Assembly (NCBI GenBank): GCA_000993685.1
Contig: LBWP01000003.1
Location: 6,196-70,195, forward strand
DNA: 64,000 nucleotides
Reading direction: 5' to 3'
Source: Candidatus Woesebacteria bacterium GW2011_GWA1_39_21
Lineage (GTDB): Bacteria; Patescibacteriota; Microgenomatia; UBA8517
Part shown: one piece after another, positions 7,414-47,572 of the stretch
How the letters are laid out: every line of letters begins with the position of its first letter
Numbering within the stretch: the stretch's first letter is position 1
The notes under the pieces: model-generated
Database searches by the model: none
Told to the model about the DNA's origin: nothing
Seen by the model: the letters and a program-made list of their open reading frames with translations, nothing else
Translations under genes and position numbers: made by a program

Positions 7414-8988
7414 ATGATGGATAAAATTATTAAATTTAAGACGCACTACATTGTCTTTCTGCTTTTTGTTATTGCAATTGTTCCCAGGATTTACCGTTTT
7501 TCGCAACAACCGATTTACACTGACGAAATAACATGGATGGTCAGAGCGAAAGAAACATTCCTTGCGTTACGAACCTTTAATCGGCAGCATATAAAAAACT
7601 ATTTTCAAAGTAGTAACGCTTGGTGGGTTAATGACAACGACACTGAGGCAATAGCGCTTCCTTTGACTGCTGCGACTGGACCGTTTATCGCATATCTGGG
7701 AATTGGTCAAAGCGTTTTAACTAGAAATGTTGCGAGAGATTTTGTCGTTGCCCGTTTCCCGCTTATTGTGATTAATTCGTTTACGGTTGTGATTGTTTAT
7801 TTATTAACCAGAAAAATTACAGATAAAAAAACGGCACTTTTGACGGGAGTTTTGTACGCGTTGGATCCCGTGGCTATCAGTTACAGTCGTTTAATCATTA
7901 ATGATGGGCTTTTGACATTGTTTATCCTTTTTGGCATATATAGCTTTTTTTATATCGAGAACGTTAAGACGTCAATTATTTTGTCATCACTCTCAATCTG
8001 CTTTGCTTTTCTGACAAAGCCGATTGGACTACTTCCTCTGATAATATTTTTCTTTTACGCAATCTTTTCCGACAAAAAAATGAAGAATTTTATTAAGTTT
8101 ACTCTGATCGGATTAGTAAGTTTTGTCCTGATTCACTTTTTTTGGCCGGAAGCTTGGTTTCATCCATTCACTTCAGTGTTTGAATATCTGACGCGTCAGT
8201 TTAAGCTTATAGAAAATTCTACGGAAATGTTTTTTGCGGGAAGTGTTTCGCACCAGGTTCCCTTTTACTATTACTTTATTTTGATTTGTTTGCGTGTACC
8301 TTCTTACATTTTCTTCGGCCTTTTAGCCTCTTTGTATTTCTTTTTTACAAAAACTGGACGGAAAAAATTGATTTTGATAAATTTAAAAACCCTTTCGCAA
8401 ATAATTTATGTTTTTGTCTTTTTCTTATTTTTGTCGTTTGCCTCAAAAAAATCCGGAGTCAGGTATTTGCTTCCCATCTGGCCATATATTTACATTGGAG
8501 CATGTTGTGCGATTTTTCGTTTTGTCAAAAAACTACCGGAAATATTCGGAGGATTCGTTTTGCTTGCAATTATCTCGCTTTCTCTTTTTAATATTTACAA
8601 ATATGAACCAAATTATGATTACTACTACAACGAAATATTCGGTGGACCGGCGGTTGCCAAGAATTATGTGTCAACATCACTTTGTTATGGTGCAAAAGAG
8701 TCCGCCGATACATTGAAAAAGTGTTTTCCACAGGTTACGCAGATTTCTTATGTTGGTTGTGCAAGATCAACTTTACCATACTATTTTTCAGGAATTATAA
8801 ATTCACAGATAGACCCCAATCAACCCGTTGTAATCGAAGCCTATTATGAACAAATGAAATATGTGACAACGAAAACAGCAAAGCTAGTTAAAAATAAAGA
8901 TGTGATAAATGTTACAAAAAATGGTGTCGATCTGGCAAAGATCTACCTTAATTTGAAGCAGTTTCCCAAAAGTTGCTCTCTGAACTGA
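7414..8988 (+). CDS. GT-C fold membrane glycosyltransferase, ArnT/PMT-like (polyprenyl-phosphate-sugar dependent, GT39/GT83-like).
   Basis: 524 aa, polytopic. The first extracytoplasmic loop carries PIYTDEITWMVRAKE, the DE motif of the PMT/ArnT family. About 11 further TM helices follow. Confidence 0.55.
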   Translation: MMDKIIKFKTHYIVFLLFVIAIVPRIYRFSQQPIYTDEITWMVRAKETFLALRTFNRQHIKNYFQSSNAWWVNDNDTEAIALPLTAATGPFIAYLGIGQSVLTRNVARDFVVARFPLIVINSFTVVIVYLLTRKITDKKTALLTGVLYALDPVAISYSRLIINDGLLTLFILFGIYSFFYIENVKTSIILSSLSICFAFLTKPIGLLPLIIFFFYAIFSDKKMKNFIKFTLIGLVSFVLIHFFWPEAWFHPFTSVFEYLTRQFKLIENSTEMFFAGSVSHQVPFYYYFILICLRVPSYIFFGLLASLYFFFTKTGRKKLILINLKTLSQIIYVFVFFLFLSFASKKSGVRYLLPIWPYIYIGACCAIFRFVKKLPEIFGGFVLLAIISLSLFNIYKYEPNYDYYYNEIFGGPAVAKNYVSTSLCYGAKESADTLKKCFPQVTQISYVGCARSTLPYYFSGIINSQIDPNQPVVIEAYYEQMKYVTTKTAKLVKNKDVINVTKNGVDLAKIYLNLKQFPKSCSLN

Positions 8989-9048
8989 GTTTTGTTTTCT
9001 TCGTTTGTAGAATGATTTAGTAGTCTGGTTTAGATATAATTACCCAAT

Positions 9049-9726
9049 ATGGATAAAGTTGGGGAATACACGCTGGCTGTGATGAAGAAAGCCAAATGGT
9101 ATAACACGTGGATTTTGTCGTTTTTTGGGAAATATCTCGAAGGTGAGATTTTGGAAGTCGGATCGGGAACAGGAAATTTTTCTAGTCTACTAAAAAGTTA
9201 TGGAAAATTAAGTGCGGTCGATATTAAGAGAAATTATTTTCGTAAATATAACGACCCTCAAATAAGTGTTGGATATGGTGACATTGAAAAAGGCCAATAT
9301 TTTTTTAAAAATAAAAAGTTCGACGCGATTGTATGCCTAAACGTGATTGAACATATTAAAAATGATACAGTGGCAATCAAAAATATTCACAAGCTTTTAA
9401 AAAGTGGTGGGGCTGTCGTAGCCTTGGTTCCGGCAGGGGATTTGCTTTACAGCGATTATGATAGGTTGTTGGGCCATTACCGGCGTTACACGGTCTCCTC
9501 ATTTAGGAAAAAATTTCAAAGTGCAGGATTTAAGATCAAAAGCAGCCGATATCTTAACTGGTGGGGAGCGGTTGGGTGGTTTGTTTATCTTAAATTGTTG
9601 CGTAAATCAGTATTCCCGAAAAATGAGGTTGGTATTTTTGATTTTTTTGGAAGGTTTTTTCTTTGGCCTGAAAAGATTTTCTGCTTTCCCTTTGGTTTAT
9701 CGGTCTTGTTGGTTGCTGAAAAATGA
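9049..9726 (+). CDS. Class I SAM-dependent methyltransferase.
   Basis: Motif I EILEVGSGTGNFSSLL, an acidic-loop LSAVDI, and motif post-II FDAIVCLNVIEHIKND. Confidence 0.65.
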   Translation: MDKVGEYTLAVMKKAKWYNTWILSFFGKYLEGEILEVGSGTGNFSSLLKSYGKLSAVDIKRNYFRKYNDPQISVGYGDIEKGQYFFKNKKFDAIVCLNVIEHIKNDTVAIKNIHKLLKSGGAVVALVPAGDLLYSDYDRLLGHYRRYTVSSFRKKFQSAGFKIKSSRYLNWWGAVGWFVYLKLLRKSVFPKNEVGIFDFFGRFFLWPEKIFCFPFGLSVLLVAEK

Positions 9727-10448
9727 AACTTTCAATAATTATTCCTGTTTATAACGAAGAGTCGACGATCGAGACACTTTTGAGTAAGGTGTTAAGTGCC
9801 AAACTTCCGGCTAAAGTTGATAGAGAAATTGTGATTGTTGACGATGCTTCAAAAGATCTCTCTTATGATAAGATTTTGAAATTTAAGACCGCTTTGGATA
9901 AAAAAATTTCCACAAAGGTTATCCGCCACAACTTCAATCAGGGTAAAGGCGTTGCTGTGGTAGACGGAATCAATTTGTCAACAGGTGATTTTATTGTTAT
10001 TCAAGATGCCGATTTAGAGTACGACCCAGATGACTATCAAAAGCTGATCAAACCCATTATGGATCGAAAAACAGATGTTGTTTTTGGTACGCGTCTTAAG
10101 AATTATCCGCTGAAACTGTTTGGAAAAAACAAAACTCCACTTGTCAGTCATTATCTTGGCAATAAGTTTTTAACATTGGTTACTGAAATACTCTATCAAA
10201 GGAAAGTTAGTGATATGGAAACATGTTACAAAATGTTTCGTCGCGAGGTTATAAAAAACATAACGATACATGCTAAAAGATTTGATTTTGAACCAGAGTT
10301 TACCGCAAAGATTATTAAAAAGGGTTTCCGCATTTTTGAAGTTCCGATTAAAGTTAAGCCTCGTGGTTACGCTGAAGGAAAAAAGATTTTTTGGAAGGAC
10401 GGGTTTGTCGCTCTTTGGACACTTATCAAATACCGATTTGTTGATTAA
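9723..10448 (+). CDS. GT2 polyprenyl-phosphate sugar synthase (dolichyl/polyprenol-phosphate mannose synthase DPM1/Ppm1-like).
   Basis: MKLSIIIPVYNEESTIETLL, VIVDDASKD, QGKGVAV, and a DAD(LEYD) catalytic motif. At 241 aa it has no TM domain, like DPM1/Ppm1 catalytic domains. Its start overlaps the upstream stop (ATGA). Confidence 0.65.
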   Translation: MKLSIIIPVYNEESTIETLLSKVLSAKLPAKVDREIVIVDDASKDLSYDKILKFKTALDKKISTKVIRHNFNQGKGVAVVDGINLSTGDFIVIQDADLEYDPDDYQKLIKPIMDRKTDVVFGTRLKNYPLKLFGKNKTPLVSHYLGNKFLTLVTEILYQRKVSDMETCYKMFRREVIKNITIHAKRFDFEPEFTAKIIKKGFRIFEVPIKVKPRGYAEGKKIFWKDGFVALWTLIKYRFVD

Positions 10449-10563
10449 TAAGTCCAGACTCATTTAAAAAAACGATTACGCGATTACCCTTTAACTGTTT
10501 TTTTAAGTTCTGGTTATAAATTTAAAGAAGGCGAAATTATCGATTTTTGACTATAATAAAATA

Positions 10564-11640
10564 ATGAGGATCGCAATTCTCTCTTTCTACAGTGGAATAA
10601 ACCAAAGAGGTGTGGAACGTTGGGTTTATGATTTAGCTTCAAGGCTGTGGGTTACCCACGAAGTTACGGTTTTTCAAAATAACCCGTTAGGGATTAGGAC
10701 TAACTATAGTATTAGAACTTCTGGTATTAATTTTAATGAAGGTAAAACGCTAAGTGGGTGGATTGCGCGTCATTTATTTATTGATTACAAAAGTTTGAAG
10801 GTTTTGCATTTTACCTTGGCAATTTTAAAAACACTGTTTAAAGAAAATTTCGACATCGTAATTCCGACAGATGGTGGATGGGAACCAGCTATTGTCAGGA
10901 TTATAACCTGGCTAAGAAGAAAAAAAATGGTTGTTATTGGCCATGCTGGTATAGGATGGGACGACACCAATAATTTGTTATGTTTTCCTGATACTTTTGT
11001 CGCCCTGTCTTCGTATGCAAAAGTGTGGGCTGAAAAAACAAATCCCTTTGTCAAAACTGTATATATTCCAGACGGCGTAGATATGAAACTATTCAGACCC
11101 GACGGAGATAAAATTGATTTTGGTTTGAAAAGACCTTTGCTTCTGTGCGTTTCTTCGCTGGAAAAAGGCAAGAGGGTTGACTTAGTAATAAAAGCGGTTT
11201 CGCTTTTGAAAAATTATAATCTATTAGTGTGTGGGAGGGGAACACTGGAGAGAAAAATTTATAAATTTGGCCAAAAACTTTTGGGGAAAAGGTTCAAACT
11301 TAAAAGTTATGATTTTGATAAGATGCCTTTGGTCTATCGCTCGGCCGACGTTTTACTTTCTGCCTCGCTTCCGTCATATTCTTTTGAAATGGTTCTTGTT
11401 GAAGCAATGGCGAGCGGACTTTCTGTTATCGCAAATAACGATCCTATTCGAAGTGAAATTGTCGGAAAGGCGGGTTTTCTTATTGATGTGCGGGACACGC
11501 GACGGTTTTCTGAAGTAATTGGCAAAGTCCTTCAGAAACAAAACGCTCAAGGTTATTCTCTACATCAGGCGGGTAGATATTCGTGGGACAAGATATTATC
11601 CGAGTATGTAAGTTTATTTGAACGTTTGCAACAAAGTTAA
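10564..11640 (+). CDS. GT-B fold glycosyltransferase, family 4 (GT1 clan).
   Basis: The C-terminal EX7E region FEMVLVEAMASGLSVIANN is typical of GT4 retaining glycosyltransferases. Confidence 0.65.
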   Translation: MRIAILSFYSGINQRGVERWVYDLASRLWVTHEVTVFQNNPLGIRTNYSIRTSGINFNEGKTLSGWIARHLFIDYKSLKVLHFTLAILKTLFKENFDIVIPTDGGWEPAIVRIITWLRRKKMVVIGHAGIGWDDTNNLLCFPDTFVALSSYAKVWAEKTNPFVKTVYIPDGVDMKLFRPDGDKIDFGLKRPLLLCVSSLEKGKRVDLVIKAVSLLKNYNLLVCGRGTLERKIYKFGQKLLGKRFKLKSYDFDKMPLVYRSADVLLSASLPSYSFEMVLVEAMASGLSVIANNDPIRSEIVGKAGFLIDVRDTRRFSEVIGKVLQKQNAQGYSLHQAGRYSWDKILSEYVSLFERLQQS

Positions 11641-11649
11641 TTCAAGGTT

Positions 11650-12405
11650 ATGGCTCGATTGACAGTCACAATTATTACGTTGAATGAAGAAAAAGATCTT
11701 CCACGTTGTCTGGAATCGATAAAAAAGCTTGCCGATGAGATTGTTGTTGTTGATTCGGGAAGCACCGACCACACCGTTGATATCGCGCGGAAATATACTG
11801 CGAAAGTGTTTAAAAGGAAGTTTGATAACTATGCAAACCAAAAAAACTTTGCAGCACAAAAAGCATCAGGGGTATGGATTTTGTCTTTGGATGCGGATGA
11901 GGAAGTGGAATCCCAGTTGGCATCTGAGATTGCCTCTTGTATTAATAATAAGACTTTGAAATATTGCGCTTATTCGATTCCAAGAAAAAATATTATCTTT
12001 GGGAAGTTAATCAGGCACTCTCGTTGGCAAGCAGAGTTGGATAGACATGTCTGGCTGTGGAAGAAAGGTTTTGGGCAGTGGAGAGGTGATGTTCACGAAG
12101 AAGTTGAAGTCGATGGTTATGTTGGAAAAATGAACGGTGCAAAAATCCATCATCAATACCGAACTCTTAAAGAATTTTTCGCGATGATGAATCGTTATTC
12201 CGAATTTGAGTCCGAAGAGATTATTCGAAAAGGGGGGAATTTTTCATTATTCAAAATGATCTGTATACCCAAGTATAACTTTTTAGTTAGATATTTCTAC
12301 CGACTTGGATTTTTGGATGGCTGGAGAGGTTTTATGTTGTCATACCTTATGGCGATATACCATCTGATTGTTTGGGTAAAGGTTTGGACGAAAAGGAAAA
12401 TATGA
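11650..12405 (+). CDS. GT2 family glycosyltransferase (WaaE/KdtX-like).
   Basis: LTVTIITLNEEKDLPRCLESI, VVVDSGSTDHTVDIA, and a DADE motif (SLDADEE). Confidence 0.65.
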   Translation: MARLTVTIITLNEEKDLPRCLESIKKLADEIVVVDSGSTDHTVDIARKYTAKVFKRKFDNYANQKNFAAQKASGVWILSLDADEEVESQLASEIASCINNKTLKYCAYSIPRKNIIFGKLIRHSRWQAELDRHVWLWKKGFGQWRGDVHEEVEVDGYVGKMNGAKIHHQYRTLKEFFAMMNRYSEFESEEIIRKGGNFSLFKMICIPKYNFLVRYFYRLGFLDGWRGFMLSYLMAIYHLIVWVKVWTKRKI

Positions 12406-13880: not shown

Positions 13881-15370
13881 AAACGGGTTTTGTTGCCACT
13901 TTGCTTAAAACCACGGTATTTATGCCGTGGATGAAGCAAATTTTCGCATTTAACGTATCTAATCGCAGGAAACAAACTTCCACAGCTTTCAAACCGTGGA
14001 AGTTTATTAATTGGGTGAAAACACACGTTACAGAACTAGTACTATTTCTGATAATTGCTCTCCATATCTCACTTCTTTTGCATCTGATATTTTTTCCATA
14101 TCCAGAACTTTTCGTATATTCGTTTCTATCCTCAAAAGGCTTATTGCCTTACAGAGATATTTTTGATCAGCACTTTCCCGGGATTATGCTTTTTCCGATT
14201 AATCTGTATTCGCTTGGCCTGGCAACTTTTGCAAGGATAAGAGTAGTTCATTTACTCTTAGTTGCCCTTAATCAGATTCTTTTGTATAAAATCGGTTGTA
14301 GAATAACAAACTCCAATAAAAAAGCGCTTCTGATGAATTTTTTTTATCTCCTCTGGCAACCTTACTTTGAGGGAAATGTTTTGTGGATTGAATCGTTTGT
14401 TACACCTCTTCTTCTTTTTTCTTACTACTTCCTCGACGCGAATTGCAGGAAACGGCTTTTCATTAGCGGTTTATTAATGGGTTTGGCACTGGTATTTAAA
14501 CAAGTTGTTTTCCCACTTATCTTGTTTGTTGTCGTCTACCTTTTTGTTAAAAATAGTAAAAAAATGTTTTTAGTTTATCTTTTTGGACTATCATTTTTCC
14601 CAATTTTGATGATAATGTTTGTTTTCTCAAAAGGTATTTTTGGTGAATTTCTTTATTGGACCGCAACTTTCAATCTCACGGTTTTTTCACAAATGGGCCG
14701 TAAGGATCCCAATTTAGCTGGTTTAATCCAGGCCGCACCCCTTTTCGCGCTGGGTTTTCTTTCTGCGTTTTTTGTGTTGGTCAAATTTGGGAAAAAATAT
14801 TTACCGCTTTTACTATTTGCAGCTGCGACCTTATTTTTTGCGTACGCTAGATATGATTTTATCCATCTCCAGCCGTCCCTGCCTTTTTTTATTTGCCTGA
14901 TAACTCTTTCTTTGTTTAGTATTAACCGTAGGTTACTAGTTATTTTTATAATTGTTTATATAACTCTTGCGTCATTTTTTATTATTCGCTTTTACAAGCT
15001 TAATTTTGGAAGTACAATCGTCTTTTGGGGAGAGACAGAGAAACTTGTTACCACTATTGTCAAGGAGAACACGAATCCTGACGATAAAATTTTTTCATAT
15101 GGCTCGATACCTGACATTTACTTCTTAACCAACAGACTTCCTCCGGGCAATAAGTTCGTATTTCAGTTTCCTTGGTTTATGAAAGTGGCAGAAAAAGACA
15201 TTTTAAAGGGTATAATACAAGATAGTCCGCAGATTGTTGTTGAAGAAGAAGGTGTTTATGTTCAAGGTTACAACTTAGATGATTATATGCAGAATATCCG
15301 TATGTACCTAGGTAGCAACTATGTACAGATTGGTAAAGTGGGAGAAATCAAAATTCTCAAAAAACTATGA
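13877..15370 (+). CDS. Polytopic membrane protein, a putative GT-C-like glycosyltransferase or polymerase.
   Basis: 497 aa with at least 10 hydrophobic helices. It has an acidic first loop (LPYRDIFDQHFPG) and a C-terminal soluble domain. It sits between GT-C and GT4 genes. No unambiguous family motif was recognised. Confidence 0.35.
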   Translation: MKTGFVATLLKTTVFMPWMKQIFAFNVSNRRKQTSTAFKPWKFINWVKTHVTELVLFLIIALHISLLLHLIFFPYPELFVYSFLSSKGLLPYRDIFDQHFPGIMLFPINLYSLGLATFARIRVVHLLLVALNQILLYKIGCRITNSNKKALLMNFFYLLWQPYFEGNVLWIESFVTPLLLFSYYFLDANCRKRLFISGLLMGLALVFKQVVFPLILFVVVYLFVKNSKKMFLVYLFGLSFFPILMIMFVFSKGIFGEFLYWTATFNLTVFSQMGRKDPNLAGLIQAAPLFALGFLSAFFVLVKFGKKYLPLLLFAAATLFFAYARYDFIHLQPSLPFFICLITLSLFSINRRLLVIFIIVYITLASFFIIRFYKLNFGSTIVFWGETEKLVTTIVKENTNPDDKIFSYGSIPDIYFLTNRLPPGNKFVFQFPWFMKVAEKDILKGIIQDSPQIVVEEEGVYVQGYNLDDYMQNIRMYLGSNYVQIGKVGEIKILKKL

Positions 15371-16452
15371 AAATTGCAATTGACGCTTCCCAGGTAATAT
15401 ATGATACCGGAGTTTCCGTTTATACACGAAATCTAATCGGATCTATTCTTAGTATCGATAAAAAGGATAATTTTCTTTTGTTTGGCGGTTCTTTGAGAAG
15501 AATTCCAAAACTTGTTGACACATTTTCTAAATTGACGCAATTAAGCAATAATGCCCGTAGTATAGTTTTTCCAATACCACCTTTTTTATCAGATGTTTTG
15601 TTCAACCGTTTGGGTTGGAGTATAGATCCGCTAATTGGAAAAGCTGATATCTTTCACTCTTCAGATTGGACTCAACCTAGCAGCAGTGCCTTTAAAGTTA
15701 CTACAGTTCACGATTTAGTACCAATACTTTTTGAAAGAATGTCCCACCCTAAGATTGTTGAGGTGCATAAAAGGAGGCTTGAGAGGGTAATGAAATATGC
15801 TGATAGAATAATTGTGCCGTCGCAAACAACCAGAGATGATCTGCTGAAACTGGGGTGTCCTGAAAAAGTGATTAATGTTATTCCCGAAGCCGTTGACCCA
15901 AGTTTTCACAAGTGTACTCGTGAAATAGTGGAAAGTACAAGGAGAAGATATAATCTCAACTCAAAATATTTATTGGCGGTAGGCACAAGTTACAGGAAAA
16001 ACATTGAACGTATTATCCAGGCATTTGAAAAAGTCAGAGTGGGTCGAAGGTTGAAGCTTGTGGTAATCGGCGAAGTACGTAAACCTATGCATTTTGTTAG
16101 GAACGTTGTGTATTTGGGTAGCGTTACGCAACGAGACATTGTTCCGATGTATGCTGGGAGTGAAGCGCTTCTCTATCCATCGCTGTACGAGGGTTTTGGT
16201 TTACCGATTCTGGAGGCTTTTTCACTAGGTGTGCCAGTTCTAACCTCCAATCGTGGAAGCATGGGGGAAATTGCCGGAGACGCCGCAGTTTTAGTTGACC
16301 CGGAAAATTTGGACTCTATATCTAGGGGAATCGAAAAGTTGCTGGAAAACAAGAATTTTTATGCGAGGTTGGGCAAAAAGGAGATAAAGAAATATAGCTG
16401 GAGGAGTACTGCTTTATTGACCTTAAGTTTGTACAAAAATCTTGTTAAATAA
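15367..16452 (+). CDS. GT4 family glycosyltransferase (GT-B fold).
   Basis: YPSLYEGFGLPILEAFSLGVPVLTSNRGSMGEIAGDAAVLVDP (EX7E motif). Confidence 0.7.
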   Translation: MKIAIDASQVIYDTGVSVYTRNLIGSILSIDKKDNFLLFGGSLRRIPKLVDTFSKLTQLSNNARSIVFPIPPFLSDVLFNRLGWSIDPLIGKADIFHSSDWTQPSSSAFKVTTVHDLVPILFERMSHPKIVEVHKRRLERVMKYADRIIVPSQTTRDDLLKLGCPEKVINVIPEAVDPSFHKCTREIVESTRRRYNLNSKYLLAVGTSYRKNIERIIQAFEKVRVGRRLKLVVIGEVRKPMHFVRNVVYLGSVTQRDIVPMYAGSEALLYPSLYEGFGLPILEAFSLGVPVLTSNRGSMGEIAGDAAVLVDPENLDSISRGIEKLLENKNFYARLGKKEIKKYSWRSTALLTLSLYKNLVK

Positions 16453-17593: not shown

Positions 17594-17596
17594 AAA

Positions 17597-18232: not shown

Positions 18233-18235
18233 CAA

Positions 18236-18790: not shown

Positions 18791-18808
18791 AATCAGCTGA
18801 AAAAGCGT

Positions 18809-19738
18809 ATGGCTAATAAAAAAAACATAATGTTGTCGATTATCATTGTTAGTTTCAACACCAATAAAATATTAAAAAGTTGTATTGATTCGGTTATTAA
18901 AAATAGCGGCAATTTAAAGTACGAATTCGTTATCGTTGATAATAACTCAACAGATGGATCTGTTGCCTATTTGAAAAGACTTTCCCAATACAAGAATGTA
19001 AAGGTTGTTTTTAATCGAACCAACGTTGGTTATGGTGGTGCGAATAACCAGGGAATTAATCGGGCTTTGGGTGATTACCTACTATTTCTTAACTCAGACA
19101 CATATTTCGAAAAAAATATCTTAAAGAAAATGGTTGATTATTTAAAAAAACATCCCCACATTGGTTGTATAAGTTGTATGCTCAAAAATTCCGACGGTAC
19201 CATTCAAGGTACAGGAGGATATTTCCCAAATCTCTTAGGAGTTTTTTCATGGATGTTGATTCAGGATTTTCCTTTTATTGATAGACTTATCAAACCTTTT
19301 CATCCCATGAAGTCACGTTCATTTTTTAAGGGAACTGGATTTTATCTACATGAGAAAGAGCTTGATTGGGTAACGGGGGCGTTTATGCTGATGAGAAAAA
19401 AAGCTGTGAATGATACAGGCCTTTTTGACCCGCATTATTTTATGTATATGGAAGAAGTTGATTATCTTTTCAGAATGAAAAAGAAGGGTTGGAAAGTTTT
19501 ATATAAGCCGGATTGGTCAATTGTTCATCTGGGTGGAAAAAGTGGATCTGCAGGTTCTGGAATCCTTCTTGAATTTGAGGGTGTAAAGATATTTTACAAA
19601 AAACATTACCCTAAATGGCAATACGCGCTTTTAAGGGTTATTTTAAAAACAGGTGCGTTTTGGAGAATGTGTATATTTGGTTTACTTAAAGGTAAGGTGG
19701 ATTTTACGGTATATGCAAAAGCTTTCCAACAAATTTAA
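18809..19738 (+). CDS. GT2 family glycosyltransferase (rhamnosyltransferase-like).
   Basis: MLSIIIVSFNTNKILKSCIDSV, VIVDNNSTDGS, and DxD-like NSDTYF. Confidence 0.65.
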   Translation: MANKKNIMLSIIIVSFNTNKILKSCIDSVIKNSGNLKYEFVIVDNNSTDGSVAYLKRLSQYKNVKVVFNRTNVGYGGANNQGINRALGDYLLFLNSDTYFEKNILKKMVDYLKKHPHIGCISCMLKNSDGTIQGTGGYFPNLLGVFSWMLIQDFPFIDRLIKPFHPMKSRSFFKGTGFYLHEKELDWVTGAFMLMRKKAVNDTGLFDPHYFMYMEEVDYLFRMKKKGWKVLYKPDWSIVHLGGKSGSAGSGILLEFEGVKIFYKKHYPKWQYALLRVILKTGAFWRMCIFGLLKGKVDFTVYAKAFQQI

Positions 19739-21074
19739 TCAAATTAATAAATACTTAGTGGCAGCTCTGATACTTACGATTCCGTTATATCAGAAATTTC
19801 CCTTTATTGGCGTTCCCGGAACTTTTGTATCAATAAGGATGGAAGATTTTCTGGTTCTGCTTTCGGTTACCGTTTTTATTATTATCAACTTTAAAAATGT
19901 TGTCAGATATGCAGAAAACCCGATTTTTAAGTCTGTGTTTTTGTTTTTCGCTCTTGCGTCCTTTTCACTGTTGTCTGCTATATTGATTACTAAAACAATT
20001 AGCCCAACAATTGGCGTTATACATCTCATCAGACGTGTCGAGTACATGAGCATGTTGTTTATTGGTTATTCCGCGATTTTTAACAATCGTAATAACCTTT
20101 CTTTTTACGTTAAATTAATATTAATCGTCGTCTTTTTATCTTTCACATACGGCTTGGGGCAACGCTACTTTGAATGGCCAATTATTATCACCCAAAACGA
20201 GGAATACTCCAAAGGAATTGCGTTGAGATTTGTGGAAGGTGGTCACATTAACTCAACGTTTGCCGGACATTACGACCTAGCAACTTACTTGGTAATGGTC
20301 ATGCCTTTGATTTTGAACATCTTCTTCTTTATTAAAAGGGGAGTTGGGAAATATATATTTTTTGTTGCCTATCTTTGCGGATTGTGGTTGTTGGTTAATT
20401 CGGCCTCGCGGATAGCGATGGTGTCGCTTCTGCTTTCTGCAAGCCTTGCACTTCTATTGACGAAAAAGTTTGTTAAAGCGATTCCGATTTTGATCTTAAG
20501 CATATTATTTATTGGATTTTCATCAAATTTGATTGTTAGGTACGAAAGACTGTTTACGATTGTCGGCGATGAAGCAAAACGTATTTTCAGCTACCAGATC
20601 ACGTCTGTGTATGCCCAGGGTGAAGATGGTCTAGAGAGGCGCGAAAGTGCACTACCAACACCAACTCCACTTCCTATATTTGAGGACAGATCGACATCGA
20701 TTAGATTAAATGTCGAGTGGCCGAGGGCAATTAGGGCGTTTGTCAAAAACCCGCTTTACGGAACTGGATATTCATCAATTACTTTGGCAACCGACAATGA
20801 TTATCTGCGGGCTTTAGGGGAAACGGGTCTATTGGGTTTCATTTCGTTTGCACTTGTAATTGCATGGCTTGTACTTAATTTTATAAAGATTTATCGAGAG
20901 AGTTTCGGATTTGAAAAAGTTTTTTTGAGCGGAATTTTCGGATCTTTGTTTGGAGTTTTGTTAAATGCGATGTTTATTGACGTTTTTGAAGCATCCAAAA
21001 TTGCACTTTCATTTTGGTTATTTATGGGAATGGCTCTGGCATTGAAGGTGAAAAAATATGAGAAAACTATTTAG
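19713..21074 (+). CDS. O-antigen ligase / Wzy-like polymerase family membrane protein.
   Basis: Polytopic protein with a large loop reading GTGYSSITLATDNDYLRALGETGLLGFISFALVIAWLVL. This resembles the O-antigen ligase (Wzy_C) signature, from memory. The start is moved to the internal ATG at 19713 to avoid an 85-nt overlap with the upstream GT2 gene. Confidence 0.5.
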   Translation: MQKLSNKFNQINKYLVAALILTIPLYQKFPFIGVPGTFVSIRMEDFLVLLSVTVFIIINFKNVVRYAENPIFKSVFLFFALASFSLLSAILITKTISPTIGVIHLIRRVEYMSMLFIGYSAIFNNRNNLSFYVKLILIVVFLSFTYGLGQRYFEWPIIITQNEEYSKGIALRFVEGGHINSTFAGHYDLATYLVMVMPLILNIFFFIKRGVGKYIFFVAYLCGLWLLVNSASRIAMVSLLLSASLALLLTKKFVKAIPILILSILFIGFSSNLIVRYERLFTIVGDEAKRIFSYQITSVYAQGEDGLERRESALPTPTPLPIFEDRSTSIRLNVEWPRAIRAFVKNPLYGTGYSSITLATDNDYLRALGETGLLGFISFALVIAWLVLNFIKIYRESFGFEKVFLSGIFGSLFGVLLNAMFIDVFEASKIALSFWLFMGMALALKVKKYEKTI

Positions 21075-22485: not shown

Positions 22486-22488
22486 AAG

Positions 22489-23697
22489 ATGAAAATTTTA
22501 ATGCTTGTTCCCTACTTACCGACGATCACGATGAGTGGCGGGCAAACACGCTGGTACAATATCATAAAGTATTTAGCAAAAAAACATGAAATTACCCTCT
22601 TTTCCCTGATTAAAGACGAATCTGAAAGAGAGTTAGTTCCTGAACTTTTGAAGTATTGTAAAAAGGTTAAAGTTTTTAAACGTCCACAAAAACCTTGGAC
22701 GATTAGAAACATTCTTTTATCTGTTTTGGGGCCTTTTCCACTCCTTGTTGTTCGCAATTGGTCGTTTGATGAAATGAGATCGCTTCAAAGAGAGTTAGTT
22801 ATGGAAAAGTATGACCTGATTCACACAGAGACTTTTTATGTTATGCCGCATTTGGGAAAAACGAAAGTGCCGGTTATTCAGGTGGAACAGACTATTTGGC
22901 ATGAAGTATATAAACATCACGTGGAGAGTGAAATACCGTTTTTTTTACGACCGTTGTTCCTTATTGATGTCGCAAAAATTATTTTTTGGGAAAAGTTTTA
23001 CTGGAAGAAGGCAGATAGATTATTCGCTGTCTCGGAAGAGGACCGTGATCTTATGAAAAATCTTCTACCCGATAAGAAAATTGGAATCATCCCCAATGGG
23101 GTGGACAGTAAATATTACACAAGTTCGAAAATAAAAAGACATGACCCACCACGAGTTTTGTATGGTGTTTCTAATTTTGAGTGGTTGCAAAACCAGGAGG
23201 CAGTAAAACTTTTATTGGATGAAATCTGGCCACAGATTAGAAAAATATATAAGGCTCCACTTAAGCTATGGATTGTTGGGAGGAAAATGCCGGAGTGGAT
23301 TAAAAACAGCGCGCGCCAAAACAGTGACGTATTCATTACCGAAAATATTAAAGACGCAAGAGACGCATATGCTTCTGCGACAATTATGATAACGCCAATA
23401 AAAGGAGGCGGTGGAACCAGGATAAAAATTCTGGAGGCAATGGCTGCTGGATTACCGGTTGTTTCTACAAGTATTGGGATTGCTGGACTCAAAGTTGAAA
23501 ACGGCAAAAATGTATTAATTGCTGACACTTCTGAAGACATCGCCGAAAACGCGGTAAAACTACTTAACGACGAGAATCTCTTGAGAAAAATCGGTAAGAA
23601 TGGCCAACTTCATGTTGAAAAATACTTTGACTGGAAATCGATTGTCATGATGCACGAACCGGTATATAGGGACCTGATTAGTATCAAAAATGATTAA
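22489..23697 (+). CDS. GT4 family glycosyltransferase (GT-B fold).
   Basis: GGGTRIKILEAMAAGLPVVSTSIGIAGL. Confidence 0.65.
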   Translation: MKILMLVPYLPTITMSGGQTRWYNIIKYLAKKHEITLFSLIKDESERELVPELLKYCKKVKVFKRPQKPWTIRNILLSVLGPFPLLVVRNWSFDEMRSLQRELVMEKYDLIHTETFYVMPHLGKTKVPVIQVEQTIWHEVYKHHVESEIPFFLRPLFLIDVAKIIFWEKFYWKKADRLFAVSEEDRDLMKNLLPDKKIGIIPNGVDSKYYTSSKIKRHDPPRVLYGVSNFEWLQNQEAVKLLLDEIWPQIRKIYKAPLKLWIVGRKMPEWIKNSARQNSDVFITENIKDARDAYASATIMITPIKGGGGTRIKILEAMAAGLPVVSTSIGIAGLKVENGKNVLIADTSEDIAENAVKLLNDENLLRKIGKNGQLHVEKYFDWKSIVMMHEPVYRDLISIKND

Positions 23698-24592
23698 AAA
23701 ACAGTTGGCGATTGTCGTCCTCAATTACAATACACGCGACCTACTTGATGGATGTTTGACTTCACTTAAAGCTCTCGTAAACGAACTTTTGTTTGAGGTG
23801 ATTGTTGTTGATAACGGTTCAACCGACGACTCTGTAGAGATGGTTAAAGAAAAATATCGTTGGGTCAAACTGCTTGAAACCGGGGGAAATCTTGGATTTG
23901 CCCGTGGTAATAACGCAGCCAGAAAAGTTATCAAAAACGATTATATTTTATTTTTGAATTCGGACACGTTAGTTGGCCGTGGTGTGCTAGTAAAGTGCCT
24001 AAAATACCTAAAAGATAACAATTTAGGAGCGCTGACCTGTAAGCTCCTTCTCGAAGACGGTTCTTTAGACCCGGACTGCCGAAGATCGTTTATCACGCCG
24101 TGGATTGGCCTTTCGCACCTGTTTTTGAAATTGGACAGAATCTTTCCCAGGTCGAAATTGTTTGCGAAGTACTGGTACGGATACCTGTCGCAGGATTTAA
24201 TCCATGAGGTCAATGCAATACAGGGTGCGTTTTTTTTAACGTCGAAAACAGTTTTGGATGAAGTAGGGTGGTTTGACGAGGACTATTTTTTGGATGGTGA
24301 AGACATTGACTTGTCATGGAAGATTAAAAGCCACGGTTATAAAATTGTCTATTATCCAGAGGCCTCGATTACACATCTAAAAGGAGCAACTAAAGGTAAG
24401 AACCGTAAAGATAAAAAATACATCAGTTTTCAAGATAAATTAAAGTATAGATTGTCTGGGGTAAACTCGATGGAGATTTTCTATAGAAAGAGGCTTTGGA
24501 ATAACTATCCTACTTATCTGAATTATCTGGTCATTTTTGGCATCAAATTTCTTAAACTCATACGTACAGTGAAAATACTAATTTTCAAATGA
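23690..24592 (+). CDS. GT2 family glycosyltransferase.
   Basis: LAIVVLNYNTRDLLDGCL, VIVVDNGSTDDS, and NSDT. Confidence 0.65.
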   Translation: MIKKQLAIVVLNYNTRDLLDGCLTSLKALVNELLFEVIVVDNGSTDDSVEMVKEKYRWVKLLETGGNLGFARGNNAARKVIKNDYILFLNSDTLVGRGVLVKCLKYLKDNNLGALTCKLLLEDGSLDPDCRRSFITPWIGLSHLFLKLDRIFPRSKLFAKYWYGYLSQDLIHEVNAIQGAFFLTSKTVLDEVGWFDEDYFLDGEDIDLSWKIKSHGYKIVYYPEASITHLKGATKGKNRKDKKYISFQDKLKYRLSGVNSMEIFYRKRLWNNYPTYLNYLVIFGIKFLKLIRTVKILIFK

Positions 24593-25734
24593 GAATACTT
24601 ATTGACGCGAGAATGTATGGTTTGGAGCACACAGGGATTGGAAGATATCTTATTAATTTAATTGAGCAGCTTAAAAGAGAATCGTCGAATTCGATAGAAA
24701 CAAAACATCACTTTATTATTCTTTTAAGAAAAAAATATTTTGAGACGTTAACCTTTTCCAAAGGTTGGGAAAAAATTCTGGTAGATATCCCACATTATGG
24801 TATAAGGGAACAACTTTTACTTCCAGGCATAATTGAAAAACATAAACCTGATCTTGTTCATTTTCCACACATTAATGTCCCAATTTTTTATAAAGGCAGA
24901 TACGTTGTAACTGTACATGATATAACAATGCAAAAACAGGGGATCGCAGCGACTAAACTACCGCTTCCAATATATTTTCTCAAACGGCTGCCTTTTTTAT
25001 GTATCAGCAAGTTTGCTGTAAAAAACGCCAGTAAGATTATCGTACCTAGTAAAACTACAGCAACAAATGTTGCAAACTTTTATAACATGTCGATACAAAA
25101 AATCGTCGTGATTTATGAAGGTTTTGACGATCGGATTTCAATTGCGACAAAGTATTTAAACGAGATTGATGTTTTGTCAAAATATGATTTGCTCAACAAA
25201 GATTATTTTTTCTACGTTGGTAATGCATATCCACACAAAAATTTGCCGATTGTTATTAGGGCAGTGAAGGATCTTAACGAAAATAAAAATATGCACATTT
25301 TCTTTGTAATTGCGGGACTGAAAGACGACTTTCATCAACAACTGTCGGATTTTGTAAATGACTTGGGCGCAGGCGGGCATATAAAACTTGTGGGGTATGT
25401 TAAGGATGAAGAACTGGCAATTATTTACAGGAATTCAGTTGGATTTGTTTATCCATCGCTGTCGGAAGGTTTTGGTTTGCAGGGACTTGAAGCAATTTCT
25501 TCGGGAACCTTTCTGGTGTGTTCGAATATTGGCGTTTTTAAAGAAGTTTATGGGTTTCACGCATTTTATTTTGATCCGAAGAGTGTTGATTCTATTTCTG
25601 GAACACTCTATTCAATTTCCAATATGAGCAAAGTTGATAAGAATAAATACATTAGAGCTGCCCAGGCATATATTAAAAAATATTCCTGGAAAAGAATGGC
25701 TGAAGAGACACTGAAGGTCTATGAAGGCGTATGA
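24589..25734 (+). CDS. GT4 family glycosyltransferase (GT-B fold).
   Basis: YPSLSEGFGLQGLEAISSGTFLVCSNIGVFKEV. Confidence 0.65.
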   Translation: MRILIDARMYGLEHTGIGRYLINLIEQLKRESSNSIETKHHFIILLRKKYFETLTFSKGWEKILVDIPHYGIREQLLLPGIIEKHKPDLVHFPHINVPIFYKGRYVVTVHDITMQKQGIAATKLPLPIYFLKRLPFLCISKFAVKNASKIIVPSKTTATNVANFYNMSIQKIVVIYEGFDDRISIATKYLNEIDVLSKYDLLNKDYFFYVGNAYPHKNLPIVIRAVKDLNENKNMHIFFVIAGLKDDFHQQLSDFVNDLGAGGHIKLVGYVKDEELAIIYRNSVGFVYPSLSEGFGLQGLEAISSGTFLVCSNIGVFKEVYGFHAFYFDPKSVDSISGTLYSISNMSKVDKNKYIRAAQAYIKKYSWKRMAEETLKVYEGV

Positions 25735-26843
25735 AGACGGCAATTGTCTACGATCGGGTAAACAAGTTCGGTGGGGCAGAGCGTGTCCTTCTTGTTCTGC
25801 ATGAAATCTTTCCGAAAGCACCTTTGTATACATCAGTTTATTCTCCACAGAACGCAACTTGGGCGAAGGTTTTTCCTAAGGTATATACGAGTTTTTTAAA
25901 TAGGTTTCCCTTTTTGAGAAATAACCATGAAATTTTGAGTATTTTTATGCCTCTAGCTTTTGAGTCTTTCAATTTTGATGACTACGACTTGGTGATTTCG
26001 GTAAGTTCTGAAGCAGCAAAAGGAATTATTACTAAGCCAAAGACAAGACATCTATGTTATTGTTTAACTCCGACCCGTTATTTGTTTAGCGGTTTTTCGC
26101 AGTATAGAGACAATCCTCCCGGGGGACTAAAACTAATTCCTTTTTACAAAAACATCTCGAACCCATTTATTAGTTATCTGAAAAAATGGGACCAAATCGC
26201 TGCCGGAAGACCGGATGTGATGATTGCCATTTCGAAAGAGGTGCAAAACAGAATAAAAAAATATTATCACAGAGATAGCAAACTGATATTCCCACCTGTT
26301 GATGTAGTAAAATTTAGGAATAAATCGGATTTTAAACCAAAAGAGAAAAATTATTATTTGATTGTCAGTCGGCTTGAACCATATAAAAAAGTTGACTTGG
26401 CGATCGACGCTTTCGTAAAGCTAAAGAAGAATCTGGTTGTAATTGGTATTGGCAGTCAACTGGGAACTTATAAATCGAAGTACAAACAAAACAAAAACAT
26501 TTTATTTGAAGGTTTTGTTCCCGACGACGAACTGCCTGGGTATTACCAAAACGCCAGGGCATTTATTTTTCCCCAGGAAGAGGATTTTGGAATTACAGCA
26601 GTTGAGGCGCAGGCTTCTGGATCTTTGGTAATTGCGTATAAAAAAGGCGGTGCGTTGGATACAGTTGTTGATGGAATTACCGGCGTCTTTTTTGATAAGC
26701 AAGACGTGGAGAGTTTAATCACAGCTATTAAAAGACACGAAAGAACAAAATTTGATAAAAATATCCTCTGGAGAAACGCAAAAAAATTTGATTGCAAACG
26801 CTTTAAGAAAGAAATTGTAGACTTGTTGGAAATAAACGTTTAA
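25731..26843 (+). CDS. GT4 family glycosyltransferase (GT-B fold).
   Basis: FPQEEDFGITAVEAQASGSLVIAYKKGGALDTV. Confidence 0.65.
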   Translation: MKTAIVYDRVNKFGGAERVLLVLHEIFPKAPLYTSVYSPQNATWAKVFPKVYTSFLNRFPFLRNNHEILSIFMPLAFESFNFDDYDLVISVSSEAAKGIITKPKTRHLCYCLTPTRYLFSGFSQYRDNPPGGLKLIPFYKNISNPFISYLKKWDQIAAGRPDVMIAISKEVQNRIKKYYHRDSKLIFPPVDVVKFRNKSDFKPKEKNYYLIVSRLEPYKKVDLAIDAFVKLKKNLVVIGIGSQLGTYKSKYKQNKNILFEGFVPDDELPGYYQNARAFIFPQEEDFGITAVEAQASGSLVIAYKKGGALDTVVDGITGVFFDKQDVESLITAIKRHERTKFDKNILWRNAKKFDCKRFKKEIVDLLEINV

Positions 26844-26856
26844 TATTGGTATTACA

Positions 26857-27915
26857 ATGATACCAGTGATGATTTGTGGCGGTTTTGGTACAAAGATGTG
26901 GCCTTTAAGCCGTGAACATAAACCAAAACATTTTCTGCCGTTGATCGGCGAAAAATCTCTCTTTCAGCTGAACTACGAAACATTAAAAACACATTTTAAA
27001 CCAGAGGAAATTTACATTTCTACTAATGAAGATCAGTTCGAATTGGGAAAGTTGAATGTGCCCGAGATTCCGCCGGAGAATTATATTCTTGAACCTGAAA
27101 TGAGGAATCAAGGACCTGCAACAGGACTGGTAGCAGCGTTTTTATATAAGAAAGGTCTAATGGACGAACCTTTTATGCTCGTTCAAACCGACGTTATCAG
27201 AGAGCCTGCTGAGGCGTTTATAAAAATGATGTTGGATTGCGATGTGGTTGCGCGCAAAGAGAGTAAGTACTTAACCGGGGGAAAACGAACCGATTACCCT
27301 GCGATGGGAGTGGATTATCTTATAAAAGGTGAGAAAGTTTCGGACGAGGGGTCTGTTGGGATTTATAATGTGGCTAAGTTTGTCTGGAGAAGTACAAAGG
27401 AACAGACGGAAGAGCTTATTAAACAACAGGGGGCGTTGATACACACAAACCATACTTGTATGACTCCCAAAAACCTTTTGAGTATGTTGCAGAAGTATAA
27501 ACCGGAATGGTATGAACCTTTGATGAATTATGTCAACGGATCTGATTTGAGAATTGAGTATCAAAAAATGCCTCCAGGCCCGATTGAAGATGTAACCCAG
27601 CAAGTTCATGCAAATGGCGAGTCATTAGTTGTTGAGTTACCTTTCCAATGGTTTGATTTTGGAACGTTTGACAACTTGTACGAATATTTGAAATTAAGAG
27701 GTCTTTACAAAACACCGGAGAATGTTGTTGATTTAGACGGGCACGACAATTTTGTTCGTCTGGATGATGCAAATAAGGTTGTTGGAATTGTTGGAGTTGA
27801 CAACTTAGTTGTAGTCGATACTGGAGATGCACTACTTATTTGTGATAAGAAAATGGCGAGCCGTGTCAATGAAGTTTTGAAGGAGGTTAAGAATAGAAAT
27901 ATCGCGCTGACATAG
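26857..27915 (+). CDS. Sugar-1-phosphate nucleotidyltransferase (mannose-1-phosphate guanylyltransferase ManC-like N-terminal domain).
   Basis: MIPVMICGGFGTKMWPLSREHKPKHFLPLIGEKSLFQ matches the GGxGTRLWPLS nucleotide-binding loop of ManC/GMP-type enzymes. Confidence 0.55.
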   Translation: MIPVMICGGFGTKMWPLSREHKPKHFLPLIGEKSLFQLNYETLKTHFKPEEIYISTNEDQFELGKLNVPEIPPENYILEPEMRNQGPATGLVAAFLYKKGLMDEPFMLVQTDVIREPAEAFIKMMLDCDVVARKESKYLTGGKRTDYPAMGVDYLIKGEKVSDEGSVGIYNVAKFVWRSTKEQTEELIKQQGALIHTNHTCMTPKNLLSMLQKYKPEWYEPLMNYVNGSDLRIEYQKMPPGPIEDVTQQVHANGESLVVELPFQWFDFGTFDNLYEYLKLRGLYKTPENVVDLDGHDNFVRLDDANKVVGIVGVDNLVVVDTGDALLICDKKMASRVNEVLKEVKNRNIALT

Positions 27916-37308: not shown

Positions 37309-37309
37309 T

Positions 37310-45082: not shown

Positions 45083-45134
45083 TATTTTGAGGTAATTATA
45101 ATATTGTACATCTGATGATACAATACTTGTATCG

Positions 45135-46505: not shown

Positions 46506-46509
46506 ATCA

Positions 46510-47460: not shown

Positions 47461-47572
47461 TTAACATGTTCTAACAACTACAGATTATTATATAGGTAGA
47501 TTAAGTTAAAATAACAATCAATCTATCCTCCTAAGTCCGGCTGCTTCTGCAGCCTTTAATATATTTGCACCC

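Follow-up and report, generated by a model that had tools for sequence, protein, structure and literature searches.

The stretch of DNA analysed here (the window; 64,000 nucleotides of contig LBWP01000003.1) belongs to Candidatus Woesebacteria bacterium GW2011_GWA1_39_21, a member of the Microgenomates in the Candidate Phyla Radiation (CPR), and carries at positions 1 to 30763 a glycan cluster with six polytopic glycosyltransferases of the GT-C fold, four of them of the PMT_2 type and two resembling AftD. The contig originates from a groundwater (Rifle aquifer) metagenome, and the same proteins are found on contigs of up to 154 kb from several samples. All genes of the cluster lie on the + strand, and in many cases the stop codon of one overlaps the start codon of the next; some 30 kb of the cluster falls within the window, and it continues upstream. 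The G+C content is about 0.37 throughout the window (range 0.35 to 0.39), with the region from 1 to 28 kb being compositionally like the rest, and no tRNA genes are found in the 64 kb. We rejected the description of the locus as an island, a term used in an earlier note on this DNA, since its G+C content does not stand out within the window and synteny is kept in related genomes. The genes listed in that note are all present, at its coordinates and on the + strand.

The open reading frames (ORFs) of the window were scanned against Pfam at E <= 0.01 and compared with NCBIfam, and AlphaFold2 (AF2) models were searched against solved structures with Foldseek. The family cut-offs referred to below are 26.1 bits for PMT_2, 22.7 bits for PMT, 26 bits for GT-C_AftD (PF11847), and 31.7 bits for Wzy_C. 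The GT-C genes are interleaved with those for a Wzx flippase, a Wzy_C protein, a Bac_transf phosphoglycosyl transferase (PGT), a WcaF-like acetyltransferase, and a DUF4012 protein. They are accompanied by seven family 4 glycosyltransferases (GT4; six in the window and one just upstream), five of family 2 (GT2), including the 241-residue GT2-241, and methyltransferases, one in the window and more upstream. The combination that marks a Wzx/Wzy pathway, a PGT (197 bits), a MOP flippase (85 bits), and a Wzy-type protein (48 bits), thus occurs in one cluster. Together with the GT4, GT2, and modifying genes, this makes a heteropolysaccharide cluster of the Wzx/Wzy type, with an embedded multi-component transmembrane glycosylation system, the best reading of the locus. 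The earlier note makes no mention of this gene context.

The PMT_2-type GT-C enzymes are named here by their start positions in the window (Table 1). The 7414 enzyme exceeds the cut-offs of both PMT_2 and PMT, with the PMT (PF02366) match spanning profile positions 81 to 232 of 245. It carries the motif YTDEITW at residues 35 to 41, in which the loop-1 pair D37-E38 (encoded at nucleotides 7522 to 7527) is invariant in 19 homologues, and its family profile reaches yeast Pmt1 (E value of 1.5e-6), Pmt2, CtPmt4 (C. thermophilum Pmt4), and ArnT. Bacterial and eukaryotic Pmt enzymes carry a C-terminal PMT_4TMC domain, which the Pfam scan does not find in 7414. The 12402 enzyme starts with ATG at 12402 in public gene calls (492 residues), while the ORF from a TTG at 12372 yields 502 residues. 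Its PMT_2 match is above the cut-off and limited to residues 59 to 101. The motif WLDEAIG is present, and the loop-1 pair D24-E25 (nucleotides 12471 to 12476) is invariant in 32 homologues from a family of more than 2000 proteins. Comparing the 12402 and 7414 families with hhalign gives a probability of 97.9% (E value of 4e-13) and superposes the two DE motifs.

The 13877 protein alone stays under the PMT_2 cut-off (21 versus 26.1 bits), but 30 of the 42 members of its family match PMT_2, and its AF2 model (predicted local distance difference test [pLDDT] score of 92) resembles STT3, ArnT, DPY19, AglB, AftA, and Pmt4 with E values between 1e-6 and 1e-3. E77 and P101 do not vary within the family. 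Roughly the first 50 residues of the ORF (window 13877 to 14035) are K/R-rich and modelled with low confidence; homologue matches start near residue 54, with none covering earlier residues, and the true start may lie downstream of the called one. In the 21058 protein, the loop following the first transmembrane (TM) helix contains the acidic residues D35 and D43. The 12402, 13877, and 21058 proteins each combine a polytopic architecture with a PMT_2 match or GT-C fold and an acidic residue in the first outer loop. The DE loop is predicted to face outward from the K/R-rich N-termini and from homology. The earlier note had named 7414 and 12402 (from its 12372 start) as ArnT/PMT-type enzymes with a DE motif and had listed 13877 and 21058 as further polytopic candidates; checked against PMT and PMT_2, these GT-C assignments stand. 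Single-sequence searches of the PDB with the GT-C proteins yielded nothing useful, and the family profiles of 12402, 13877, and the 911-residue protein described below reach no solved chain by sequence, so that a fold search or Pfam matches of family members are needed to place them. Pairwise BLASTP comparisons of the four PMT_2 proteins show no clear similarity, the best pair having an E value of 0.01, and we rejected the idea that they are recent paralogues on this ground.

The remaining two GT-C enzymes resemble AftD. The ORF cut by the start of the window (30 to 2039) is the C-terminal part, with a TM anchor at its end, of a 1171-residue protein whose gene begins about 1.5 kb upstream and is complete at positions 6508 to 10023 of locus L007, which extends beyond the window. 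The full protein matches PF11847 with 39.1 bits and has 11 to 12 hydrophobic segments. The 911-residue protein (NCBI UT39_C0003G0007) is predicted to have about 10 TM helices, a beta-rich extracytoplasmic part of about 480 residues, and a C-terminal TM anchor. Its AF2 model, built on 30 homologues (pLDDT of 88), has AftD (PDB ID 6w98) as the best match (E value of 8e-10; query-normalised TM-score of 0.52; about 10% sequence identity), followed by STT3 and PglB, and the beta-rich C-terminal half matches carbohydrate-binding modules. D32 is invariant in the 30 homologues. About 150 homologues are found, all in Microgenomates. BLASTP comparisons between the 911- and 1171-residue proteins give E values of 1e-6 and 5e-7, and the two appear to be distant paralogues.

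The 911-residue protein had been called YfhO-like and counted as a GT-C enzyme. The latter holds, whereas the Pfam scan at E <= 0.01 assigns it to no family, YfhO (PF09586) included. A genuine PF09586 protein adjoins an 868-residue homologue of the 911-residue protein in the related locus L011, which shows the two families to be distinct. An NCBIfam match to MmpA (E value of 1e-9, 37 bits versus a cut-off of 210) was dismissed as non-specific similarity of membrane regions. With the second AftD-like protein at the start of the window, the GT-C total of the locus is six, not four or five.

The AftD-like pair raises the question of an assembly line of the lipomannan/lipoarabinomannan (LM/LAM) or arabinogalactan kind, in which a short primer would be flipped and the polymer built mainly outside by the six GT-C enzymes from polyprenyl-phosphate (Pol-P) sugars. 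The large ectodomains of the pair fit such a line, as do the pairwise dissimilarity of the four PMT_2 enzymes, suggesting distinct linkages, and the presence of two further polytopic proteins just upstream of the window. However, no UbiA-type DPPR synthase and no DprE1/E2 of the decaprenyl-phospho-arabinose (DPA) pathway are found among the window ORFs scanned, the locus has a single clear Pol-P-sugar synthase, and the Wzy_C protein and about a dozen cytoplasmic glycosyltransferases argue for an intracellular origin of most linkages. We consider this alternative, in which the AftD-like enzymes would act as chain-extending or branching transferases, unlikely. The LM/LAM analogy drawn in the earlier note retains some value because two of the GT-C enzymes are AftD-like.

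The cytoplasmic enzyme predicted to load single sugars onto the lipid carrier is GT2-241, a protein with no TM helix. Its DAD motif lies at residues 95 to 97, with D95 and D97 invariant and A96 nearly so in 29 orthologues. The best solved relatives are the Pyrococcus furiosus dolichol-phosphate mannose synthase (PfDPMS; PDB ID 5mlz), then ArnC and GtrB. The family profile matches PfDPMS with an E value of 1.4e-32 and 116 bits over positions 1 to 209 of 229, compared with 91 bits for ArnC and 88 bits for GtrB. The similarity also takes in the part of the solved Pol-P synthases that contains the interface helix and the acceptor loop; the EVP and R-G-x-x-GKK motifs fall on the A-loop in the alignment, and the basic residues of the A-loop and R124 are conserved. 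The best NCBIfam matches are all polyprenyl-phosphate glycosyltransferases (AglJ, ArnC, PpgS, and a haloarchaeal Dol-P-hexose transferase), with the archaeal S-layer glycosylation enzyme AglJ on top at 97.7 bits versus a cut-off of 325; no equivalog cut-off is approached.

The GT2-241 family is widespread, with 43 to 55% identity across Chloroflexota, Bacteroidota, Verrucomicrobiota, Acidobacteriota, other CPR, and DPANN archaea. We examined the neighbourhoods of orthologues at 80 loci from other phyla. A polytopic protein is encoded within one gene on either side in 36 of these loci, within two genes in 43, and within four genes in 50. The 55 polytopic neighbours within two genes include 19 PMT_2, 9 PMT, 2 STT3, 2 YfhO, 2 PTPS_related, 1 DUF2079, and 3 Wzx proteins, and arrays of at least three polytopic proteins are seen in 11 of the 80 loci. 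This recurrent pairing with GT-C enzymes and the full-length match to solved Pol-P synthases support GT2-241 as a putative polyprenyl-phosphate sugar synthase. The commonest soluble same-strand neighbours of the orthologues are methyltransferases (11/93), a pairing seen in the window at 9049 to 10448 and at loci L012, L015, L021, L041, and L058. Two small proteins of the cluster (121 and 184 residues), neither of which belongs to any family, are candidates for attaching GT2-241 to the membrane; soluble Pol-P synthases with a membrane partner exist, as in GacI/GacJ (PMC8035078).

Which sugar is loaded is less clear. In PfDPMS, Arg117, Arg131, and Ser135 bind the Dol-P phosphate and are conserved in bona fide dolichol-phosphate mannose synthases (DPMSs), and Gln93 of the DADLQH motif is a metal ligand (PMC5526996). 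The GT2-241 family keeps one of these four signature residues, Arg117, as the invariant R124, whereas Arg131 is replaced by His143, Ser135 by a nearly invariant Asn147, and Gln93 by an invariant Glu99, the alignment near the interface helix being of moderate confidence. Of the DPM1/Ppm1-like, polyprenyl-P-hexose-forming enzyme proposed in the earlier note, the match to Pol-P synthases is thus upheld and the mannose type is not. The ManC-like pyrophosphorylase of that proposal is borne out by its NTP_transferase and ManC beta-helix domains and by TIGR01479 (GMP_PMI; E value of 8e-41). The TIGR01479 match covers profile positions 1 to 348 of 467, indicating the pyrophosphorylase part without the isomerase (PMI) domain. 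Beside the GT2-241 orthologues, ManC or NTP_transferase is absent from the top 25 neighbour families. The genes recurring there (loci L012 to L091) include UDP-glucose dehydrogenase (4) and SDR epimerases or dehydratases (8), which hints that the family handles UDP-GlcA-derived sugars and not mannose in some lineages. We put mannose as the GT2-241 sugar at a little under even odds.

These observations bear on a further alternative, in which a Ppm1/DPM1-type enzyme would make polyprenyl-P-mannose from GDP-mannose supplied by ManC, and the PMT-like GT-C enzymes would transfer the mannose in O-linkage to secreted, S-layer, or pilus proteins. Among solved structures, a DPMS is indeed the closest to GT2-241, ManC is encoded in the cluster, and 7414 passes the PMT and PMT_2 cut-offs with an invariant DE pair and a profile that favours yeast Pmt1 and Pmt2 above ArnT. 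On the other hand, three of the four DPMS residues are replaced, the orthologue neighbourhoods show no ManC enrichment, and 7414 lacks PMT_4TMC. The PMT_2 proteins of known function in Gram-positives (Firmicutes), such as GacL, CsdD, CsdF, and GtsC, act on polymers (PMC8035078). Moreover, the interleaved PGT, Wzx, Wzy, and about a dozen cytoplasmic glycosyltransferases would not be needed for protein O-mannosylation. The earlier idea of a protein O-mannosylation module like the actinobacterial pmt/ppm1 loci does not seem to fit this setting, and we regard protein O-mannosylation as distinctly unlikely, with the polymer-directed reading being preferred.

A second GT2, GT2-251, has GmaR and SunS as its best solved relatives, and its gene overlaps the start of the 12402 GT-C gene, an adjacency also found in the Microgenomates locus L010. 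The public protein P0364 (743 residues) joins a GT2-251 orthologue (55% identity) end to end with a 12402-type GT-C enzyme (43.5% identity), and its 90%-identity cluster comprises 11 member sequences. This natural fusion suggests a coupled function for GT2-251 and 12402, most simply lipid-sugar synthesis feeding the GT-C enzyme. The C-terminus of GT2-251 forms an amphipathic GFLDGWRGF helix, a feature typical of WaaE/KdtX-type enzymes. A DPM1-like nature of GT2-251 and of the 281-residue GT2-281 was considered and rejected, as both are GmaR/SunS-like in PDB searches.

Table 1. Genes and features of the window, with positions counted from its first nucleotide
Feature	Position	Strand	Basis
AftD-like GT-C, C-terminal 669 aa of 1171 aa	1..2039	+	PF11847 on full gene
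Small membrane protein, 121 aa, 2 to 4 hydrophobic helices	2017..2382	+	overlaps both AftD-like genes
AftD-like GT-C, 911 aa	2369..5104	+	AF2 model and Foldseek fold match
Wzx/MOP-family flippase	5185..6549	+	Polysacc_synt 85.4 bits; NCBIfam MOP flippase
GT2-281, 281 aa, weakly GmaR/SunS-like	6559..7404	+	Glycos_transf_2 36.7 bits; PDB GmaR E 1.4e-4
PMT/PMT_2-type GT-C (7414), 524 aa	7414..8988	+	PMT_2 48.3 bits, PMT 39.1 bits, both over cut-off
S-adenosylmethionine-dependent methyltransferase	9049..9726	+	Methyltransf_23/11/12/25; 4-bp overlap with GT2-241
GT2-241, putative soluble polyprenyl-phosphate sugar synthase, DPM1/ArnC/GtrB type	9723..10448	+	Glycos_transf_2 (PF00535) 112.8 bits
GT4	10564..11640	+	Glycos_transf_1 68.7 bits
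GT2-251, 251 aa, GmaR/SunS-like	11650..12405	+	Pfam; PDB GmaR E 1e-19
PMT_2-type GT-C (12402), 492 aa	12402..13880	+	PMT_2 36.6 bits, over cut-off
Divergent PMT_2-type GT-C (13877), 497 aa	13877..15370	+	family PMT_2 matches, AF2 fold
GT4	15367..16452	+	Pfam
GT4	16442..17593	+	Pfam
Hexapeptide-repeat O-acetyltransferase, WcaF-like	17597..18232	+	Pfam, NCBIfam
184-aa protein, N- and C-terminal TM helix, loop of ~125 aa between	18236..18790	+	
GT2, 309 aa	18809..19738	+	Pfam
Wzy_C-domain polytopic protein	19653..21074	+	Wzy_C 48 bits, over cut-off
PMT_2-type GT-C (21058), 475 aa	21058..22485	+	PMT_2 44.4 bits, over cut-off
GT4	22489..23697	+	Pfam
GT2, 300 aa	23690..24592	+	Pfam
GT4	24589..25734	+	Pfam
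GT4	25731..26843	+	Pfam
ManC-type mannose-1-phosphate guanylyltransferase	26857..27915	+	NTP_transferase and ManC_GMP_beta-helix domains
Small monotopic PGT (WbaP/WcaJ/exopolysaccharide [EPS]-type catalytic domain)	27954..28607	+	Bac_transf 197 bits; TIGR03025 252 bits
DUF4012 protein, 688 aa, single N-terminal TM helix	28697..30763	+	DUF4012 82.9 bits
Division and cell wall (dcw) cluster: MraZ, MraW, FtsI, MurA-like, Mur ligases, MurB, MraY, FtsW, MurG, FtsA, FtsZ	35581..63182		

Several of the other products in Table 1 would frame these enzymes. The PGT is the predicted initiator of a glycan linked to undecaprenyl diphosphate (Und-PP). The Wzx gene starts at 5260 in public gene calls, giving 429 residues, and the GT2-281 gene ends 10 bp upstream of the 7414 gene. 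The 121-residue protein has no Pfam or NCBIfam match, its position is conserved in L010 and in L012 (Woesebacteria GWA1_38_8), and it is a candidate for an accessory subunit or a GtrA-like flippase. The 184-residue protein, likewise found in no Pfam or NCBIfam family, has a topology that, speculatively, would suit a WpsH/Wzz-like or accessory function. The DUF4012 protein, encoded by the last gene of the cluster, carries no NCBIfam name.

The Wzy_C protein may act as the polymerase or, within the same superfamily, as a ligase or an O-oligosaccharyltransferase, functions that its sequence does not tell apart, and it reaches no NCBIfam Wzy or WaaL equivalog. The Wzy_C domain is common to O-oligosaccharyltransferases. 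This leaves room for protein O-glycosylation or an S-layer system of the slg type, with the Wzy_C protein as a PglL/WsaB-like en bloc transferase and the GT-C enzymes adding sugars, a last step that would parallel AglS in Haloferax. The missing equivalog match would agree with this, and so would AglJ, an S-layer enzyme, as the top NCBIfam match of GT2-241, though far under its cut-off. Nevertheless, neither the cluster nor its flanks revealed an S-layer or pilin gene, and the end of the cluster about 5 kb upstream of peptidoglycan genes fits a wall polymer at least equally well. We consider en bloc O-glycosylation improbable. The three alternatives (protein O-mannosylation, LAM/arabinogalactan-like assembly, and en bloc O-glycosylation), each of low probability, are not mutually exclusive.

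The design of the preferred Wzx/Wzy-type cluster recurs in relatives. In the Microgenomates locus L010, the order runs methyltransferase, AftD-like protein, small protein, 907-residue protein, Wzx, GT2, methyltransferase, GT2-234, GT4, GT2-252, PMT_2, and PMT_2/GT87. It is partly kept in L012, and a looser version occurs in a third genome (L011). A carbamoyltransferase (Carbam_trans_N/C) lies inside the cluster in L010 (12870 to 14462) and L011 (1338 to 3047) and not in this window, which suggests carbamoylated sugars in these relatives. The earlier note had called the density of GT-C enzymes high and unusual; high it is, whereas the architecture recurs in Microgenomates, and arrays of three or more polytopic proteins occur elsewhere, as described above.

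Further observations concern the upstream part and a strain variant. Upstream of the window, L007 encodes a polytopic protein of 640 residues (2428 to 4350; about 11 hydrophobic segments, with SEDW after the first TM helix) and a partial polytopic protein (1 to 1361; at least 7 segments). Both fall outside every Pfam family, and each could be an additional GT-C enzyme. One GT4 and two methyltransferases are also encoded there. In L006, a strain variant of the locus from one sample, the AftD-like gene is called as 999 plus 143 residues, the 7414 GT-C as 511 residues, and GT2-251 as 227 residues, which points to strain-level variation or assembly differences.

Downstream, four unrelated genes fill a gap of about 5 kb between the glycan cluster and the dcw cluster, which is complete from MraZ to FtsZ. 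The latter also contains a DegT aminotransferase (50047), a FemAB protein (51279), and a second SEDS protein (62115). A 749-residue protein in it (40329 to 42578) is an unusual fusion in which all three Mur ligase domains (N, M, and C) precede a C-terminal NTP_transferase part (residues 509 to 744). Another Mur ligase (48582 to 50050) is apparently split into Mur_ligase_M (48582 to 49469, with a TGA at 49467 to 49469) and Mur_ligase_C in another frame (49475 to 50050), which may reflect a frameshift, a pseudogene, faulty assembly, or a genuine split.

Taken together, we lean slightly towards a surface polysaccharide made by a lipid-carrier route and then extended or decorated on the outer face by the GT-C enzymes. 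The direct support comes from the family and fold assignments, the invariant catalytic acids, the fusion, the synteny, and the co-location of GT2 and GT-C genes across phyla, whereas donors, acceptors, flippase, and order of steps are inferred. The PGT would start an oligosaccharide on undecaprenyl phosphate (Und-P), which the GT4 and GT2 enzymes would extend in the cytoplasm from donors including GDP-mannose supplied by ManC, with the acetyltransferase and methyltransferases modifying it. Wzx would then flip the Und-PP-linked repeat unit, and the Wzy_C protein would polymerise or ligate it. In parallel, GT2-241 would load a single sugar, possibly mannose, onto polyprenyl phosphate, and this lipid-sugar would be flipped by Wzx or by a small membrane protein. 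The four divergent PMT_2 enzymes and the two AftD-like enzymes, the latter with their large carbohydrate-binding-like ectodomains, would transfer sugars or oligosaccharides from lipid carriers to the polymer on the outer face. The acceptor would be the growing polymer, with surface proteins being less likely. The GT2-251 and 12402 couple probably works likewise, and the 184-residue two-TM protein and the 121-residue protein are candidate accessory parts.

A number of points weigh against this scheme. The donors, the acceptors, and the glycan are predictions from genes. One or two Pol-P-sugar synthases for six GT-C enzymes look lopsided, so that some of the latter may draw on oligosaccharides linked to Und-PP or Und-P, or on donors from enzymes encoded elsewhere in the genome. 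For GT2-251, a lipid-sugar synthase role is suggested by the fusion only, the protein being GmaR/SunS-like and not DPM1-like. The scan of the window ORFs detects neither a Wzz/PCP chain-length regulator nor an LCP ligase, and the window shows no Pfam match to a GtrA flippase either. Finally, O-antigen ligases and protein O-oligosaccharyltransferases share the Wzy_C domain, so that a protein could serve as the acceptor.

CPR envelopes are almost unstudied, and our search of the literature on GT-C enzymes or glycosylation in CPR/Patescibacteria found nothing relevant. The size of the cluster, the gene order kept in two other Microgenomates genomes, and the proximity to the dcw genes suggest that it likely specifies a major surface polymer of Microgenomates cells. 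That the locus is the main envelope-glycan factory of the Woesebacteria cell, joining two known routes, seems to us marginally better supported than not. The predicted product is a methylated, acetylated, and possibly mannose-containing heteroglycan, with mannose and protein targets being unproven. Targets that emerge are a widespread soluble GT2 family that recurrently pairs with GT-C enzymes in phyla of both bacteria and archaea, a natural fusion of a GT2 with a GT-C enzyme, and an AftD-like family restricted to Microgenomates and without a Pfam model. A more far-reaching proposal, which we hold to be rather doubtful, is that Microgenomates build much of a lineage-specific glycopolymer outside the membrane with at least six GT-C enzymes, the AftD-like family, and, as a new kind of lipid-sugar synthase, a GmaR/SunS-like GT2 coupled to a PMT_2 transferase and in some genomes fused with it. 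If true, an ultra-small monoderm would possess a mycobacteria-like line for glycan assembly, encoded a few kb upstream of its cell-division genes, on which its surface layer or its attachment to a host might centrally depend.

Among known systems, the classical Wzx/Wzy clusters for O-antigen, capsule, or EPS share the Bac_transf PGT, the MOP flippase, the Wzy_C protein, the GT4 and GT2 enzymes, the WcaF-like acetyltransferase, and an NDP-sugar gene with this locus. In contrast to them, it has no Wzz/PCP, Wza, or tyrosine kinase, six GT-C enzymes are interleaved, and the host is a monoderm CPR bacterium. The AglJ/AglD, AglR, and AglS proteins of Haloferax volcanii offer a similar sequence of a Dol-P-hexose synthase, a Wzx-like flippase, and a GT-C enzyme adding the final sugar outside, but GT2-241 stays far under the AglJ cut-off, the locus has no AglB/STT3, and the host is bacterial.

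The actinobacterial Ppm1/Pmt system, with PimE, MptA-C, Emb, and AftA-D, likewise combines a Pol-P-sugar synthase with many outer-face GT-C enzymes, and AftD shares the type of carbohydrate-binding ectodomain, in line with the 6w98 fold and PF11847 matches. Mycobacterial Ppm1 and GT-C genes are dispersed, whereas the genes here are clustered with PGT, Wzx, and Wzy; to our knowledge, no Wzy is involved in the mycobacterial assembly. Further differences are the lack of DPA pathway genes among the window ORFs, the only partly kept DPMS residues, and the low identity to AftD.

It is plausible but unproven that the locus is a rich variant, and an extension, of a known design principle, that of Gram-positive transmembrane glycosylation. 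In Streptococcus pyogenes, the soluble GacI acts with the small GacJ, the Wzx-type GacK, and the PMT_2 protein GacL, and in Bacillus anthracis, GtsABC decorates a Wzx/Wzy polymer (PMC8035078). The Lactococcus lactis proteins WpsA/B, G, I, and J include GT-C enzymes that transfer, and even polymerise, oligosaccharides linked to undecaprenyl phosphate (C55-P), with WpsH being a two-TM regulator (PMC9574508). As in GacIJKL, WpsABGIJ, CsdAB-CD-EF, and GtsABC, a C55-P-sugar is predicted to be made by a cytoplasmic GT-A enzyme without TM helices, a Wzx-type flippase is encoded in the cluster, PMT_2 enzymes would act outside the membrane, and the genes sit in a polysaccharide cluster with small membrane proteins (PMC8035078, PMC9574508). 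The Gram-positive systems have one to three GT-C enzymes, whereas this locus has six, two of them AftD-like, and it is without rhamnan/ABC-transporter genes and a recognisable GtrA, LCP, or Wzz. GT2-241 is nearer to archaeal DPMS/AglJ than to the GtrB/CsbB-type NCBIfam equivalog, and a GmaR/SunS-like GT2 partners one of the GT-C enzymes, to which it is fused in some genomes.

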